Shown: positions 883-5,016 of the stretch, in pieces | Layout: each line of letters opens with the position of its first letter | How positions within the stretch are numbered: the stretch's first letter is position 1 | Made by a program: the position numbers and the translations under genes | Origin: Anaerolineae bacterium | Lineage (GTDB): Bacteria; Chloroflexota; Anaerolineae; S140-20 | NCBI GenBank assembly: GCA_027021705.1 | Contig: JALUTT010000075.1 | Span: forward strand, 1-35,952 | DNA: 35,952 nucleotides | Direction of reading: 5' to 3' | The notes under the pieces: model-generated | What the model saw: the letters and a program-made list of their open reading frames with translations, nothing else | What the model was told of the DNA's origin: nothing | Databases searched by the model: none

Positions 883-1115
883 CTACGCCTTCCGCCCGTA
901 AGCCACAAAGATGCTGAGGGCCAGTGCTTTTCCATCGGGACCGGCTGTGCAGCAGTTCCCCTCGGCGCAATCCACGACCACATCGGTCAGGCCGGCGGCC
1001 AGGTACCAGGCCCGCACGTCGTCCCGCTCGAAGCCCAACCAGCGGTCGGCCATAGCCTCTCGCATCCATTCCTGGTCGTGGGCGTCCAGGTCGGTCAGCA
1101 CCAGCCGGCCGCCGG
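883..1115 (-). pseudogene. 3' fragment (~76 codons) of a class I SAM methyltransferase, copy of the end of 9989..10633
   Basis: 887-1115 aligns without gaps to 10005-10233 (about 11 mismatches in 229 nt by manual count). Homology stops abruptly at 1115; the N-terminal SAM-binding part is missing. Confidence 0.88.
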
Positions 1116-1125
1116 TGATCACCAG

Positions 1126-1153
1126 TTGACACCTTTGGATTGAAAGGTATAAT
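1126..1153 (+). promoter_or_regulatory. Consensus sigma70 promoter upstream of the tRNA-like gene
   Basis: TTGACA (1126-1131), 16 nt, TATAAT (1148-1153), 19 nt before the acceptor stem. Confidence 0.85.
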
Positions 1154-1172
1154 AGTAGTAACTTGGAAGTAT

Positions 1173-1293
1173 GCCCAGGTAGCTCAGCCAGGTAGAGCAC
1201 GCGGTTTGAAAGCCGCGGGGTATCCGGGGGAAGGTGAACCACCCCATATGGTACTCCCCTAGGAGGTCGGCGGTTCAAATCCGCCCCTGGGCA
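1173..1293 (+). tRNA. Atypical tRNA / tRNA-like RNA (Phe-like frame, 8-nt anticodon loop, 51-nt variable region, no encoded CCA)
   Basis: Acceptor GCCCAGG/CCTGGGC plus A discriminator; T8A9; D arm GCTC-AGCCAGGTA-GAGC; anticodon stem CGCGG/CCGCG around TTTGAAAG; T arm GGCGG-TTCAAAT-CCGCC. All four stems pair perfectly. Confidence 0.8.
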
Positions 1294-1298
1294 TTTGG

Positions 1299-4200
1299 TT
1301 ACAGTAGGCTGGCGATGAAGGCGCGTATCCGTCGCCAGCCATCACTTTCATCCTGTGACACAATACGGTTAACGTCTTCAAGCACCTCTTTGATCATCCC
1401 TCTAGCGCTGCATATCCGTGCAAACTGTTCAAAAGCTCTCAAGGCATCATCATATTGTTGCTGCCCAAGAAGCGCTAACCCCAGGTGGGCCCATGTATGG
1501 TATTGGCGAGATTCCAGGTGGATTTGTCTTCGACAGCGCAATTCCGCTATCTGAAAAGATTCAAGTGCCCCGTTTCTTTGCCCGGCGAGCAGGTAAGCAA
1601 TCCCCCGCCCGTTGTAGACCCAGAAAAAGGAAGCTCTCAGTGGAGTCCTACTCGTTCGCATCAATCGTAGGGCCTTCTCGAAAGCCTCGATAGCTTCCAA
1701 GGGCTCACCCAAGCGAATATGCACTTTTCCCAGTCCATTGTGGGGATTGATGTATTCGGGGGCCAGCTCGATGGCTTGTTGGTAGGTCTGGAGAGCCCGG
1801 TCAAATTGCTCCATTGCCAAATACAGTGCTCCATAAGCATCGTGAAGGATGGCTTGATGATGCCGCTCTGTTATTTCCGAGGTAGGGATTTCGTCCAGCA
1901 ATCTCTTGGCCGCTTCCAGATTGCCTATTTGTCTGAGCAAGTGAGCTAATTTAACACGTGCAGGGATATAAGAAGGATCCACCTCCGTCGCTCTCTTAAA
2001 TAGCTTCTCCGCTTCGCCGAACTCTCCCAGACTGCTCAGGGCGCTGGCCTCCGCAGCGAGTATACGCGCCTGCTTCCGCTTATTCACAAGTCCGGCTACC
2101 TCATAGCGCCTAATGCGTTCTAGGCCCTGGGCAACTGCTTGCAGCGGGTCAGGTGATAAGCTCTGAGCCCGCTCATATGCCAGTTTAGCCTCCTCTAGTC
2201 TGAGAAGATTCGTGAGCACCTTCCCTCGCTCGCTATGTATATGCGGGTTATCGGGAAGCCACTGCTGAGCCCGTTCCAGCATTTTCAGACTACGTTGCTG
2301 GATTTGTCGCCTCTTTGAAGATCGGGCCAGTTTTCGCCCTAACGAGAGATAAGCAAACGCAAGGTCTCTCTCGACTCCCGGGTCCCTCTCCCCTGATTTC
2401 CTGTAAACATCCTCCACTTCGCGAAGGAGACGCTCGGCTGCATCAAAATCTCCCTTAGCGACGAGCTTTTTGGCAGCAACAAATCGTTCAGCTTGCCGCT
2501 CTTTCTCTCCCAGCAGTTCCAACAATTCTTTCATTTCACTTTCTATCCTGGCCCACCCTAGCCCCTCTCCTAATTCCGCCAACTTCTGGACGAGCCCTCG
2601 GTGGTGCATCGGCAAACTGTTGTAGAGTAGTTCATCTCTCTCCACCAGATTCAAGAGTCTTTTATGGAATCCCTCACTCCTATATCGCATTGCCCATATG
2701 TAGTGCTTAGCGAGAAGCTCAATGACATCATCGTATTCCTGCAACCATAAAAGATGGTTGAGCAAGTCCAAAAGCCATTCCTGCCATTCTTGATCCCTGT
2801 ACTTCTTTCTGACGGCCTCCTCACCATACTCATCTTCGAGTTGCTTTTCCCGCTTCTTTAGCCGAATCTTGCACACAGATTTGGCTTCTTGATTGATAAG
2901 TATCAACCGTACATTTCCAATATCACCTGAATGCAAGGCCCTCCGCAAAAAGGAGCGAACTTTCGAGTGTATTCTGTAGCCGGGGAGGATGAAAGAATAC
3001 CGATGCTGCAGTTGTCGTATAATGTGATAGAACTCCTCCGTACTGTTGATCAGGCGGCATTTGAGCCAAGTATCCATCAGAAGCCTTTCCCGCTGCGCCA
3101 CTTTAGCAGTTTCCCCCTCGCGAATAACGGCGAGGGTACAAATGTAATCCAGTTCACGAATCTGCTCTTCCTCGGGGAGTCTCTCCAAATGTTTCAAAAG
3201 GCGTTGGGTAACTAAAGCTACGACTTTGTGCTCCCCTAAAGGTTCCGTGATGTCACCGAAAAGTTGTTCTATATCGCCGCCTCTCCTGATGATGGTTGCC
3301 ACCTCACTAACGGCCAGTGGAATTCCCATCGTTATCGTATGTATCCGGGATACTAAACTATCTGAAATCCGATGGTCAGGCAATTTATGCTCCAAGAAGT
3401 CACGGATGTCGTCCTCTGTAAAGCTATCGAGTGTCTTGTAGAAATAAGCAAGAGGATACGCATATCTGCGTACAGCATCCCGGTGCCGCGGTTCAACCTC
3501 TGGAGGTAGTCTACCGGCGATGGCAAAGAGGAACCTCTTTCCTACTTCTGACTCGGAAAGGCAATGGCGGTAAAGCCCTTCCCGTATCCACTGATCGGCG
3601 AAATGCCATATCACTTCATAGGTATCAAATAGCATCACAATCGGTCGTATATGAGCAATACAGACTAAATCGGTCACAAAGGCCTGGGAGAGACGGAGCT
3701 GATTTGGAGCGGTTCGCCCCGTCTGTTGTTGCTTCCATTCAGCATTAAATTCGGGGAAAGTCACCTCTTGATACTTGGATTGAAGGCGATCGCTGATACA
3801 TCGCATCATTGCTTTGGTGCCGCCCTGGGAGTCAACTCCGGCGAATTCCCAATCCACGTAAAGCCAGAATAGGTTATCTCCCCGCTCTTCGCACAGCCGC
3901 ACATACTCACCTAGCAATGTGCTCTTTCCCATTCCTCCCTCACCACAGACAAGAAACACCTGTGCCCAATCGGGTTCACTTACTGGGCTCGTGTGATTCA
4001 GTATGCTGCTTAATGAACGCTTAAATTCATTCTTCTCCCTTTCGCGTCCGATAAAGATATCCACTCTAGGGGGTGCGTCTTGGAGCGTCAATAGTTCCGA
4101 GCCTCCCAACCACCTATCAACGAACTCGGGGAAATGAGCAGCGATCTCTAAAATATCCTCCGGGGGCGAAGTGGGAATACGCGAATATTCCTCCAACCAC

Positions 4201-4346
4201 CCCTGAATGTTTTCCCATTGTCGTTCTATCTTCATCTGGGCGCTTATTTTCTGCTCGGGTTCCGCTGTTAGCTTGCTTTCCTCGTGGCTGCGGATGATTC
4301 CATAACTCTTTCTGATCAACTTTTCAAGGTCTTCCTTACGCCCCAT
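1299..4346 (-). CDS. STAND-type P-loop NTPase with C-terminal TPR array and small N-terminal helical domain (~1015 aa)
   Basis: FIGRERE, Walker A GEGGMGKS, Walker B IVMLFDTYE, GIPLAV (GxP) motif, and multiple TPRs (e.g. AYGALYLAMEQFDRALQTYQQAIELAP). Start moved from 4406 to ATG 4346, which has GGAGG 7 nt upstream. Confidence 0.88.
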   Translation of the reverse strand: MGRKEDLEKLIRKSYGIIRSHEESKLTAEPEQKISAQMKIERQWENIQGWLEEYSRIPTSPPEDILEIAAHFPEFVDRWLGGSELLTLQDAPPRVDIFIGREREKNEFKRSLSSILNHTSPVSEPDWAQVFLVCGEGGMGKSTLLGEYVRLCEERGDNLFWLYVDWEFAGVDSQGGTKAMMRCISDRLQSKYQEVTFPEFNAEWKQQQTGRTAPNQLRLSQAFVTDLVCIAHIRPIVMLFDTYEVIWHFADQWIREGLYRHCLSESEVGKRFLFAIAGRLPPEVEPRHRDAVRRYAYPLAYFYKTLDSFTEDDIRDFLEHKLPDHRISDSLVSRIHTITMGIPLAVSEVATIIRRGGDIEQLFGDITEPLGEHKVVALVTQRLLKHLERLPEEEQIRELDYICTLAVIREGETAKVAQRERLLMDTWLKCRLINSTEEFYHIIRQLQHRYSFILPGYRIHSKVRSFLRRALHSGDIGNVRLILINQEAKSVCKIRLKKREKQLEDEYGEEAVRKKYRDQEWQEWLLDLLNHLLWLQEYDDVIELLAKHYIWAMRYRSEGFHKRLLNLVERDELLYNSLPMHHRGLVQKLAELGEGLGWARIESEMKELLELLGEKERQAERFVAAKKLVAKGDFDAAERLLREVEDVYRKSGERDPGVERDLAFAYLSLGRKLARSSKRRQIQQRSLKMLERAQQWLPDNPHIHSERGKVLTNLLRLEEAKLAYERAQSLSPDPLQAVAQGLERIRRYEVAGLVNKRKQARILAAEASALSSLGEFGEAEKLFKRATEVDPSYIPARVKLAHLLRQIGNLEAAKRLLDEIPTSEITERHHQAILHDAYGALYLAMEQFDRALQTYQQAIELAPEYINPHNGLGKVHIRLGEPLEAIEAFEKALRLMRTSRTPLRASFFWVYNGRGIAYLLAGQRNGALESFQIAELRCRRQIHLESRQYHTWAHLGLALLGQQQYDDALRAFEQFARICSARGMIKEVLEDVNRIVSQDESDGWRRIRAFIASLL

Positions 4347-4523
4347 CCTTGTACCTCCCACACATATCCGTTGTCTCCGGGTACAATAGATTTGATCGGA
4401 AGCCATCCTCTCCCCGGCCCGAATTGCGGAATACGGGTTATGAGGAATTGCCGGACCTTTTTGTCACGGCTCGCCGCAGAGGACGGTCCAGGAGGGCTTT
4501 GTGGATGATCACCAAACTCGTTT

Positions 4524-4657
4524 GTGGTGATTCCCCTACAAGTGGGCGAGGGAATGAGCCATAGCGGGCTGTCCACAAATCTCCCACGAATGCACGAATA
4601 AGGTAGAGATTGAATCGTGTATTTATGCCCTATTCGTGGACGGCCATCTCTCCATAT
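4524..4657 (-). repeat. Dispersed ~130-bp palindromic element, homologous to 22770-22901
   Basis: Reverse complement reads GGAGAG..GCCGTCCACGAATAGGGCATAAATACACG...ATTCGTGCATTCGTGGGAGATTTGTGGACAGCC..CTCGCCCACTTGTAGGGGAATCACC, collinear with the 22.8-kb copy. Core hairpin 4568-4644. Confidence 0.85.
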
Positions 4658-4692
4658 ATTAACAAATATTAACAACGTCTACATATTCTGTA

Positions 4693-5016
4693 CTATTTGT
4701 AATCCTCCCTGATGGGATGCCAGGCATCCACAGCTTGAGTAGGATGGGAAAGGGCGCGTGCGCTATGGGGCACGTTTGGGGGAATGGTCACCCCTTCACC
4801 GACCCTGATGATCCGTGTCTCATCGCCCAGGGTGAACTCCAGCGCACCTTCCAGCACCAGCGTGATTTGTTCGTGGGGATGCTGGTGCTCCGGCACCACG
4901 GTCCCAGGTGCGAAGTCGAAGAAGGTCATCATCACGCCCTCCAGGTAGACGGCGCGTCGGCCGATCCCCGCGGCCATTTCCGTTCGAGGCAGTTCGCTCA
5001 CCCGAAAGAAAGCCAT
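4693..5016 (-). CDS. Cupin domain protein (copy 1)
   Basis: PEHQHPHEQ and IPPNVPHSA cupin motifs; GAGGAGG RBS before ATG 5016; 4 aa differences from 10630..10953. Confidence 0.9.
   Translation of the reverse strand: MAFFRVSELPRTEMAAGIGRRAVYLEGVMMTFFDFAPGTVVPEHQHPHEQITLVLEGALEFTLGDETRIIRVGEGVTIPPNVPHSARALSHPTQAVDAWHPIREDYK

Follow-up and report, generated by a model that had tools for sequence, protein, structure and literature searches.

A tRNA-shaped RNA gene abutting a convergent STAND NTPase-TPR gene: a candidate two-gene conflict cassette in an Anaerolineae genome

Avs and NLR-like receptors have an N-terminal output module, a central STAND NTPase and a C-terminal TPR-type sensor, which is also the order of parts in the protein studied here. 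To our knowledge, the known Avs proteins detect proteins of phages and are not accompanied by an RNA gene of their own, and we know of no dedicated RNA partner of the present kind for NLR-like STAND proteins. According to a 2026 preprint (10.64898/2026.01.04.697583), SeAvs7 uses host EF-Tu as a helper, which is bound via its tRNA-binding domains. The effector-associated-domain (EAD) conflict systems, reported in Chloroflexi among other phyla, likewise combine a STAND NTPase with a repeat sensor and a small, all-helical, non-enzymatic N-terminus, and their domain is also found on caspase, CHAT, trypsin, TIR and FGE-sulfatase proteins, in some cases encoded by an adjacent gene (Kaur et al. 2020, eLife, PMC7159879). 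That paper mentions no RNA component, the word tRNA appearing in its reference list only. On the RNA side, type III toxin-antitoxin systems (ToxIN) and retrons place a structured non-coding RNA with its own strong promoter beside the protein that is putatively controlled. Allo-tRNAs and irregular long-armed tRNAs have a long variable arm and conflict-type neighbours; the irregular ones carry anticodons that mismatch class II identity, most commonly UAU (Ile), and most of those tested were inactive in translation (Mukai et al. 2017, NAR, PMC5389517).

Here, we analysed a window of 35,952 nucleotides, the whole stretch of DNA under study, in which a tRNA-shaped RNA gene and a STAND NTPase gene form a small island (Table 1). 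The RNA is a complete tRNA mimic, unlike the RNAs of ToxIN and retrons. A type III toxin-antitoxin system was rejected because there is a single RNA gene without tandem repeats (direct repeats did not exceed chance-size matches) and no endoribonuclease toxin, and a retron because reverse transcriptase is absent; neither a reverse transcriptase nor a nuclease domain was found by domain search. Allo-tRNA identity was also rejected, since the RNA has the canonical 7-bp acceptor and 5-bp T stems, whereas allo-tRNAs split a 12-bp branch 8/4 or 9/3 (PMC5389517). Moreover, the arm is much longer here (42-51 nt), and the RNA keeps to one partner gene, which it abuts in a constant orientation.

Table 1. 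Positions, within the window, of the features discussed in the text
Feature	Positions	Strand	Remarks
Sigma-70-type promoter of the RNA gene, TTGACA-16-TATAAT	1126..1153	+	12/12 consensus matches
tRNA-shaped RNA gene, 121 nt	1173..1293	+	7/5 cloverleaf; discriminator A at 1293; CCA not encoded
Anticodon loop, 8 nt, UUUGAAAG	1205..1212	+	GAA at 1208-1210; sequence reading and cmscan alignment
Variable region, 51 nt, forming the long extra arm	1218..1268	+	Carries the shared motif CCCCAUAUGG; insertion relative to the tRNA model
11-bp hairpin in the RNA 3' trailer	1307..1340	+	In the terminal part of the STAND ORF
STAND NTPase with C-terminal TPR array, 1015 aa	1299..4346	-	Stop TAA at 1299-1301
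TPR sensor region, aa ~640-1015	1302..2429	-	Pfam TPR families
Walker A GEGGMGKS, aa 135-142	3921..3944	-	Invariant in 9/9 aligned family members
N-terminal helical adaptor domain, aa 1-80 (first ~75 residues)	4107..4346	-	No Pfam family
Non-coding region upstream of the STAND gene, 346 nt	4347..4692		Imperfect inverted repeat at 4567-4645

The two genes are convergent, and 5 nt (1294-1298) lie between the discriminator base of the RNA and the STAND stop, exactly as a first-pass annotation made from the sequence had read it. Other parts of that annotation also hold. The island has about 50% GC in a genome of 66% GC (45-53% across ~1400-4800, against 62-74% in the flanks), and its base composition is foreign. 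The palindromic repeat is an imperfect inverted repeat, 4567-4597 / 4615-4645, with 31-nt arms that are 71% complementary; the region around it, 4347-4692, gave no Rfam match even at E <= 1 and did not align with the upstream regions of two related loci, L026 and L032. The promoter and the tRNA-like gene were likewise read correctly, and Rfam RF00005 matches 1173-1293(+) with 47.9 bits (E 2.1e-7; gathering score 29).

By sequence reading, the RNA has a 7-bp acceptor stem with canonical D and T arms, and it carries a GAA anticodon on a Phe-like body, the closest host tRNA being a tRNA-Phe(GAA) on contig C170. It fails normal tRNA geometry in its 8-nt anticodon loop and 51-nt variable region. 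Variable regions have 4-5 nt in class I tRNAs and about 10-21 nt in class II tRNAs. ARAGORN called 0 tRNA genes over the window and rejected this RNA. We built a model of our own (R1) for the long-armed RNA and used it to score the tRNAs of the genome; the window RNA reached 90.3 bits, against <=61 bits for the ordinary tRNAs of the same genome. The insert that forms the arm is single-copy in the genome and is not a dispersed repeat. The RNA would presumably be transcribed and processed in the manner of a tRNA. The abnormal loop of the window copy, together with its tRNA score, the lowest among the copies, could reflect decay.

In the relatives of this locus, the RNA genes are also RF00005 matches (112-115 nt, 61.9-64.3 bits) with an insert of ~42 nt in the variable region, and their anticodon loops have 7 nt, being CUGAUAA (GAU) or, in L028, CUGAAAA (GAA). 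The GAU-bearing RNAs have an Ile-like body, and their 5' half is 89-92% identical to phage tRNA-Ile genes. Across the five sequences, the motif CCCCAUAUGG in the arm is invariant, the acceptor (7-bp) and T (5-bp) helices are paired in 100% of cells, and compensatory changes occur at 8 of the 28 modelled pairs, which 0 of 500 shuffles reach. The basal stem of the arm is predicted in all five, with one compensatory pair; the structure of the distal arm is not maintained from the window to the other lineages, so that basal stem and motif are the only common parts. The sense strand of the RNA retains the canonical positions of tRNA tertiary structure. Between L026 and L027, the RNA is 93.9% identical, whereas the STAND gene is 77% identical in DNA and 69% in protein; on this comparison, the RNA is more strongly constrained than the adjoining gene. 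Two loci differ at 2 of 7862 bases, and one of the two changes turns the anticodon GAU into GAA at its third base. Considering this change and the GAA on the Phe-like body of the window RNA, the sequences hint at selection on the anticodon end as an interface. Every RNA copy examined is preceded by a near-consensus promoter of its own, which in L026, L029 and L027/28/32 reads TTGACA/TTGGCA-17-TATAAT/TACAAT.

The check proposed in the first-pass annotation, whether homologues of the protein adjoin such an RNA, was positive at all five fetched relative loci with a true homologue (L026, L029 and L027/L028/L032); at L034, a distant homologue locus with 24% identity, the long-armed RNA is absent. 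In the relatives, the RNA lies on the opposite strand, convergent and 0-1 nt after the STAND stop, and this arrangement holds at 6/6 loci with the window included. The co-occurrence is therefore strict, and the convergent abutment extends over three lineages, in which the proteins of the others are 48-50% identical to that of the window and 69% to each other. The count covers the fetched loci and not the contigs of six further family members, P0002, P0004 and P0006-P0009, among which P0008 and P0009 are trypsin-fused (Trypsin_2). The window RNA is the only long-armed match in its own genome, and none was found in 150 other sampled genomes of the phylum or in 150 others from the order to which the Roseiflexus MAG belongs. 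Neither a full-length blastn match to the RNA nor the STAND protein was found in 60 relatives. Overall, about 360 other genomes searched held no long-armed RNA. The flanking genes differ from locus to locus (GNAT on one side and cupin and aconitase on the other in the window; a caspase at L026; a CHAT protein, an HTH protein, a transposase fragment and CRISPR repeats at L032) while the RNA-STAND pair stays. Because no further copy of the RNA turned up in the genomes searched, the earlier suggestion that RNA and protein travel together is upheld, and from these comparisons it appears well supported that the pair moves as one inherited unit. The co-occurrence is inherited synteny in three lineages of apparently one phylum, not repeated independent association.

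Such linkage could be historical, since all loci have a common ancestor. The RNA would then be a degenerate tRNA that chanced to border an ancestral mobile element, for example as an attachment site, with no function shared with its neighbour. Island borders are commonly tRNA genes, and the window copy, with its abnormal loop, was missed by ARAGORN. The first-pass annotation had offered a related alternative, that the RNA gene is only an integration hotspot, and the present results weaken it: the RNA is not a housekeeping tRNA, canonical tRNA-Phe and tRNA-Ile being present at other places in the genome, it is absent from the island-free relatives searched, the island has no integrase, and no repeat of the RNA 3' half was found at the far island end. 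An RNA that merely rode along would also hardly stay at 94% identity while the adjoining gene drifted to 77%, acquire compensatory changes in eight pairs and retain a consensus promoter in all lineages, and its arm insert is not a dispersed repeat. Hitch-hiking without function is thus very unlikely in our judgement.

A second possibility is that the RNA is a working tRNA, which is aminoacylated and enters the ribosome. In a milder form, it would add decoding capacity for an AT-rich cassette in a GC-rich host; in a bolder form, it would be a harmful RNA controlled by the system, mischarged via the long arm or causing frameshifts via the 8-nt loop. The full set of canonical tRNA features is consistent with this, as are the agreement of body and anticodon types (Ile-like with GAU, and Phe-like with GAA in the window) and the use of TTT and ATT in the STAND genes, which is about 5-6 times that of long host ORFs. 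Irregular long-armed tRNAs with Ile-type anticodons are described near toxin-antitoxin genes, and 2 of 6 tested variants killed E. coli (PMC5389517); arm-tagged tRNAs are reported as able to translate (PMC7590224). On the other hand, the host genome elsewhere has the canonical tRNA-Phe(GAA) twice and a tRNA-Ile(GAU), which already read the same codons, so that the RNA would decode nothing new, and the most enriched codon, ATA (about 11-fold), is read by neither anticodon. An arm of 42-51 nt is far beyond that of natural class II tRNAs, whose variable region is given as more than 10 nt (PMC7609411), and a strong constitutive promoter would be odd for a poison. Accordingly, we regard translation by this RNA as quite improbable.

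The spacing of the genes raises a third possibility, namely that the RNA gene matters mainly by its position and promoter, as a brake in cis. In this case, convergent transcription from the consensus promoter ~125 nt beyond the stop would enter the STAND gene, collision of polymerases or RNA pairing would keep a potentially lethal NTPase low, and the tRNA shape would only give processing and stability. With gaps of 5, 0, 0 and 1 nt across the four types of locus, overlap of the two transcripts is unavoidable, and the 3' end of the STAND mRNA must hold the complement of the whole tRNA-like RNA; an RNA acting only in trans would not need such tight spacing. The strong promoters are conserved, and no conserved terminator was found downstream of the RNA gene. 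In the window, the 5-nt gap between the genes is free of a terminator, as the first-pass annotation stated, but the terminal part of the ORF contains an 11-bp hairpin (1307-1340); the region 1294-1373 folds at -27.8 kcal/mol, which 0 of 200 shuffles equal, and the hairpin has no U tract and is absent in L026, L029 and L032. However, antisense action leaves unexplained the conserved long arm with its invariant motif, the tRNA tertiary positions kept in the sense strand, and an RNA far more conserved than the gene that it faces. In addition, complementarity between the arm and the 5' region of the STAND gene was not above shuffled controls at any of four loci (4/4). We consider a cis-antisense brake unlikely, and it can coexist with the partnership that we prefer.

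The protein is a STAND NTPase, with P-loop motifs and helical modules followed by a repeat-type sensor, as had been read from the large ORF. The longest frame is 1299-4406(-), and the database protein (P0001) starts at 4346, directly downstream of a GGGAGG ribosome-binding site. Walker B (D241/E244) is, like Walker A, invariant in 9/9 aligned members. Pfam returned many TPR families (E down to 4e-28) and weak matches to AAA_16 and NPHP3_N that were under the cut-offs. The AlphaFold model (mean pLDDT 80.4) places a beta-alpha core at 130-305 ahead of helical modules, which are followed by TPR helices to the C-terminus; its top Foldseek match is 6mfv, a STAND protein with TPR (E 7.6e-10, with a TM of only 0.22-0.32), and Avs3 stands at rank 31. 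The family is rare, with 8 full-length relatives among 5.8 billion proteins. Within it, the mean pairwise identity is 0.43-0.54 for the TPR region against 0.48 for the NTPase core. A TPR region as conserved as the core is easier to reconcile with a conserved ligand than with a phage protein that evolves fast, and in this the protein is unlike Avs, whose sensor is variable. It also has no fused nuclease or other enzyme, and no PADLOC family, Avs profiles included, matched it at E <= 0.01; the PADLOC-defined Avs family was rejected because no Avs profile matched and a fused N-terminal enzymatic effector is missing. The PADLOC check suggested earlier thus returned nothing, so that domain logic is what argues for a defence role.

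The description of the protein as effector-less is correct in that Pfam found no enzymatic domain in aa 1-130; it has to be amended in that residues 1-75 form a widespread adaptor shared with effector proteins. This adaptor is common to 194 representative proteins at E <= 0.001. A Pfam scan of the 47 longer proteins among those listed gave 20 STAND-type NTPases, 7 CHAT/caspase/trypsin and 7 FGE-sulfatase proteins, with TIR, PNP_UDP, kinase and cyclase also present and 12 without a Pfam match. The caspase that adjoins the RNA in L026 has it at aa 1-74, 50% identical to STAND aa 1-74, and the C-terminal EAD7 of the same caspase matches the N-terminus of the STAND relative at L029, which is itself Pfam EAD7 (E 6e-25). 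In the genome of the window, adaptor copies sit on other contigs, namely on a CHAT protease (G000:C120:42956-44452) and on C144, C36, C40 and C50; no effector gene is adjacent to the STAND gene in the window. A small non-catalytic domain shared by NTPase and effector proteins is what characterises EAD-type domains, and by this logic the adaptor places the STAND protein among the effector-associated-domain conflict systems of PMC7159879. A named Pfam EAD family was rejected for it: unlike in those systems, the adaptor lies outside Pfam (no match even at E <= 10), 0 of 30 aligned adaptor sequences matched an EAD family, and hhalign against EAD7 gave a probability of 0.1.

Taking these results together, we lean slightly towards a functional partnership of some kind between the RNA and the STAND protein, in which the two would act together. 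The island may have been acquired horizontally, as a cassette of two genes belonging to an NTP-dependent conflict (immunity-type) system. Its protein would combine the NTPase with a TPR sensor that is conserved and a homotypic adaptor at the N-terminus; upon activation, it would oligomerise and then recruit protease effectors with the same adaptor, for which the caspase of L026 and the CHAT protease encoded elsewhere in the window's genome are candidates. The RNA would be its dedicated, strongly transcribed, tRNA-shaped partner. Its long variable arm could serve as a handle for the STAND protein, most likely via the conserved TPR region, with the tRNA body and anticodon end displayed as bait or co-ligand. 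A protein handle in this arm is physically plausible, because tRNAs engineered to bear a protein-binding hairpin on the tip of the variable arm reportedly remain active and can be sequestered by their protein partner (Mukai 2020, PMC7590224). The NTPase would then be switched when the RNA is cleaved, modified, sequestered or lost in infection. RNA binding by the protein, the direction of regulation and a role in defence are all suppositions of this model, and a bait or ligand mechanism for the RNA is our leading guess, which we propose only tentatively.

A specific form of the bait mechanism is more doubtful still. Here, the tRNA mimic would be held on the TPR region by its giant variable arm, with its anticodon end exposed to attackers of host tRNAs, such as anticodon nucleases, tRNA-modifying enzymes and tRNA-depleting phage functions; damage or capture would free the NTPase, which would assemble and recruit caspase/CHAT proteases via the adaptor. 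If the bait reading is true, the system would be the first example of a dedicated RNA bait in an NLR-like (STAND) receptor, and the GAU/GAA switches would be relics of an arms race around the choice of the mimicked tRNA. A version with the RNA as a labile antitoxin fits poorly, as tRNA bodies are very stable.

We have found that the tRNA-shaped RNA gene of the window, which carries a long variable arm, and the convergent STAND NTPase-TPR gene are inherited together, tail to tail. The STAND family is tiny: among 5.8 billion proteins searched, only 8 full-length relatives with 37-60% identity were found besides the protein of the window itself. Scans of metagenome and species-genome collections provided the DNA of 5 loci with a true relative (L026, L029, L027, L028, and L032); the co-occurrence count covers these loci and the window, and leaves out the database proteins P0002, P0004, and P0006-P0009. 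The sampling represents three lineages, apparently from one phylum. The proteins of L026 and L029 are 87% identical to each other, and L027, L028, and L032, the last from a Roseiflexus MAG, are near-identical; these two lineages share 69% protein identity, and each is 48-50% identical to the window. In 5/5 loci, an RF00005 match of 112-115 nt with a ~42-nt insert at the same cloverleaf place lies on the strand opposite to the STAND gene, 0 or 1 nt past its stop, and has its own upstream promoter (TTGACA/TTGGCA-17-TATAAT/TACAAT). The first-pass annotation had predicted that the RNA would accompany the protein homologues, and this held in every locus examined. L034, a distant STAND relative (24% identity), is without such an RNA. 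For true relatives, neither partner was found without the other among the sampled genomes searched.

A covariance model built from five RNAs found this copy alone above the ordinary-tRNA level in the window's genome (90 bits versus at most 61). The model gave no match in two samples of 150 other genomes each, one from the phylum and one from the order of the Roseiflexus MAG, and neither the full RNA nor the STAND protein was found in the 60 closest relatives. The phylum-level sample for the Roseiflexus MAG was taken as identical to that for the window host and adds no coverage; the results suggest that the two belong to one phylum. The genes flanking the pair are housekeeping genes in the window, a caspase gene in L026 and L029, and genes for a CHAT protein and an HTH protein, a transposase fragment, and CRISPR repeats in L032.

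The first-pass annotation had described an RNA, a promoter, an abutting STAND-TPR ORF, and a low-GC island, and these were borne out in every measurable point. The raw sequence and the Rfam model alignment gave an acceptor stem of 7 bp. The D arm is standard with GG in its loop, the T arm is standard (GGTTCAAATCC), and the 3' end has a discriminator A with no encoded CCA. On the other hand, the anticodon loop of the window RNA is abnormal, with 8 bases (UUUGAAAG) and GAA in the center, as are the 51 bases that separate the anticodon and T stems. According to PMC7609411, ordinary tRNAs have 4-5 bases at the variable region and class II tRNAs a little over 10. ARAGORN called no tRNA anywhere in the window. 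The promoter, TTGACA-16-TATAAT, has 12/12 consensus matches and lies 19 nt upstream of the RNA. The absence of a terminator between the two genes, also part of the earlier description, stands overall with one amendment: an 11-bp hairpin is present in the RNA trailer, inside the STAND ORF. This hairpin exists in the window alone, and no conserved terminator was found 3' of the RNA.

Coordinates of the RNA gene, the STAND gene, and further adaptor-bearing ORFs in the window's genome (G000; C, contig)
Feature	Position	Strand	Remark
tRNA-shaped RNA gene	window 1173-1293	+	full-length match to Rfam tRNA model, 47.9 bits (threshold 29)
STAND ORF	window 1299-4346	-	1015 aa; stop 5 nt from last base of RNA
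CHAT protease with adaptor	G000:C120:42956-44452		
NB-ARC STAND and small protein with adaptor	C144:59684-60967 and C144:63320-63706		
Small protein with adaptor	C36:8788-9981		
Small protein with adaptor	C40:18400-18993		
Small protein with adaptor	C50:31872-32537		

L026 and L027 share 93.9% identity in the RNA, compared with 77% in the DNA of the adjacent gene and 69% in its protein. In five sequences, 97% of the cells of the modelled cloverleaf and basal arm stem are paired. Both-side changes occur in 8 pairs, which was reached by 0/500 shuffles, and slid controls fall to 31-44% paired; these statistics come from only five related sequences, so that independence is overstated, and the direction is still clear: in the window lineage, compensatory changes have restored the acceptor, anticodon, and T stems. 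Judging from these substitutions, the RNA is under selection, and pure hitch-hiking of the RNA with the STAND gene, which their joint inheritance would also accommodate, is the weaker explanation. In the long arm, the basal stem is common to the sequences and the motif CCCCAUAUGG is invariant in 5/5, and the distal arm of the window has a fold that differs from that of the other lineages. In both arm forms, AUAU is predicted to be unpaired beside a C/G helix.

The anticodon is GAU in L026, L029, L027, and L032, and GAA in L028 and the window. L027 and L028 show 2 differences in 7862 aligned bases, one of which is the third anticodon base; the chance of two random changes touching any of the three anticodon bases, calculated post hoc, is ~8 in 10,000. 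The body of the Roseiflexus-type RNA is tRNA-Ile-like, with 89-92% identity between its 5' half and phage tRNA-Ile genes. The nearest match to the body of the window RNA is the host's own tRNA-Phe. A working or poisonous tRNA is a further explanation, and we consider it weaker. On the one hand, the RNA passes the tRNA model. On the other hand, it fails the tRNA class features of loop size (window) and arm size (all loci), and it is not needed for ordinary decoding because two canonical tRNA-Phe(GAA) genes and one tRNA-Ile(GAU) gene are present in the host. Elsewhere in the host genome (G000:C71:4086-4443 and C89:37059-37230), there are a second tRNA cluster, with a 71-nt tRNA-Pro(GGG), tRNA-Trp, and a second tRNA-Phe, and two adjoining near-identical tRNA-Trp genes. 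Odd ARAGORN calls on C24, C99, and C92 (98 nt, within a GC-rich repeat and with an 'anticodon' of four bases) are apparent false positives.

In the STAND protein, the Walker A and B motifs do not vary within the family, and there is a long TPR array. The AlphaFold model of the protein has a mean pLDDT of 80.4, and 6mfv, a STAND-TPR protein, matches it best in the PDB. The protein falls outside every Avs family defined in PADLOC. The GC content of ~1400-4800 is 45-53%, compared with 62-74% in both flanks and 66% in the genome. The STAND genes have 47-50% GC and a GC3 of ~0.5, and the long ORFs of the host have a GC3 of 0.78; the cassette is foreign to its hosts. In G001, the nearest relative with aconitase, the neighbours differ from those of the window; therefore, the island borders are set by GC content alone. 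The regions upstream of the STAND gene do not align and have no Rfam match, and no conserved operator was found there. An open frame at window 883-1134(-) extends from the GC-rich left flank to within the RNA gene and the promoter of that gene. The final ~80 codons of the frame resemble the tail of a real protein, with no Pfam match, and the frame may be a gene truncated on arrival of the island.

A phage origin was rejected, as no relative of the STAND protein was found in viral contigs. One viral contig, L052, matched the arm-motif pattern without a match to the RNA model, so that its motif is a chance match within coding sequence. Matches of the L026-type RNA in the phage collection are confined to its 5' half and are to ordinary tRNA-Ile/Met genes. 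Plasmids gave only weak TPR matches to the STAND protein. A dispersed hairpin or MITE inserted in a tRNA was also rejected, the insert having no other copy in the window's genome or the Roseiflexus MAG.

The STAND protein had been described as effector-less. In function, this description does not hold: amino acids 1-75 form a helical domain, not in Pfam, that is common to CHAT, caspase, and trypsin proteins and to NTPase proteins. We refer to this domain as the adaptor. Among 1.84 billion representative proteins, it was found in 194 at E <= 0.001, nearly always in a terminal position. In a Pfam scan of 47 of the longer listed carriers, 20 have NACHT, NB-ARC, nSTAND, or AAA-type NTPase domains, 7 have CHAT, caspase, or trypsin, and 7 have FGE-sulfatase; TIR, phosphorylase, kinase, cyclase, and nuclease-type domains are single cases. 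EAD7 is also present in 2/47, and 12/47 have no Pfam match. By analogy, this partner spectrum is the signature of the effector-associated domains (EADs) of Kaur et al. 2020. According to PMC7159879, EADs are small non-catalytic domains that join NTPase switches to effectors via self-copy pairing. The gene just past the RNA in L026 encodes a caspase whose N-terminus is the adaptor, 50% identical to the N-terminus of the L026 STAND protein, and whose C-terminus is Pfam EAD7. In L029, the STAND N-terminus is EAD7 (E 6e-25) instead of the adaptor. Two other STAND relatives, with 37-44% identity, have a directly fused trypsin domain. The window-type adaptor (L026:222-440) and EAD7 (L029:29-298) are unrelated, sit on STAND proteins otherwise 87% identical, and are both present in the adjoining caspase; by sequence comparison, the adaptor has clearly been swapped recently. 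The window's genome has at least six more ORFs with the ~75-aa adaptor (Table), which suggests that adaptor-linked conflict proteins form a network across the genome and that the STAND gene is not an isolated one.

On balance, we infer a functional partnership of some kind between the RNA and the STAND protein, and more tentatively propose the RNA as bait or ligand of the protein. The long arm would be a protein handle held by the STAND protein, probably at its TPR region. The exposed tRNA part would be the bait or co-ligand, whose state would set the STAND switch with its putatively protease-recruiting adaptor. The TPR region is as conserved as the NTPase core (mean pairwise identity 0.43-0.54 versus 0.48), which would be unusual for a region that chases fast-evolving phage proteins. 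Engineered tRNAs with a protein-binding hairpin in the variable arm behave like this (PMC7590224). Considering that the gap is only 0-5 nt and that no conserved terminator lies past the RNA, the two transcripts must overlap, and the overlap would act as an antisense brake on a dangerous STAND protein. Such a brake may coexist with the handle model. An antisense action of the arm in trans on the STAND 5' region was rejected, as the duplex energies were no better than shuffles in 4/4 loci.

STAND/NLR-type receptors have a central role in the immunity of bacteria, plants, and animals, and to our knowledge the bacterial ones characterised so far all sense proteins. A STAND receptor inherited with its own tRNA-shaped RNA would bring an RNA partner to this class. 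Going by domain logic, the STAND protein belongs with the EAD-type STAND conflict systems and would work like them. The pairing would tie the tRNA pool to the EAD conflict systems found in filamentous bacteria. The RNA would be a natural tRNA with a protein handle in its variable arm, hitherto an engineering idea (PMC7590224). The nearest analogue of the RNA is the allo-tRNAs, described in PMC5389517 as irregular long-armed tRNAs beside conflict genes; however, the RNA lacks their defining 8/4 or 9/3 stems. In the open full-text literature searched, no STAND NTPase paired with a tRNA-like RNA was found. The observation is real. Even if the RNA is only a cis-acting brake, the strict 0-5-nt tail-to-tail layout would be a notable compact regulatory design.

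In the arm motif, a C precedes the AUAU, which gives the exposed bases CAU (window 1245-1254; arm loop of L026, L029, and L027). Both tRNA-Met and the lysidine-modified tRNA-Ile2 have the anticodon CAU, the latter reading AUA. Of all codons, AUA shows the strongest over-use in the STAND gene, ~11-fold relative to long host ORFs, and the match may be coincidental. The Roseiflexus-type cassette adjoins a CRISPR array and a DDE transposase fragment. CRISPR-DR28 repeat matches of 41.5 bits lie at L027:8963-8986 and L032:11331-11354, ~2.3 kb from the RNA gene, and self-comparison of the Roseiflexus-type loci revealed repeated ~100-nt blocks near these matches.
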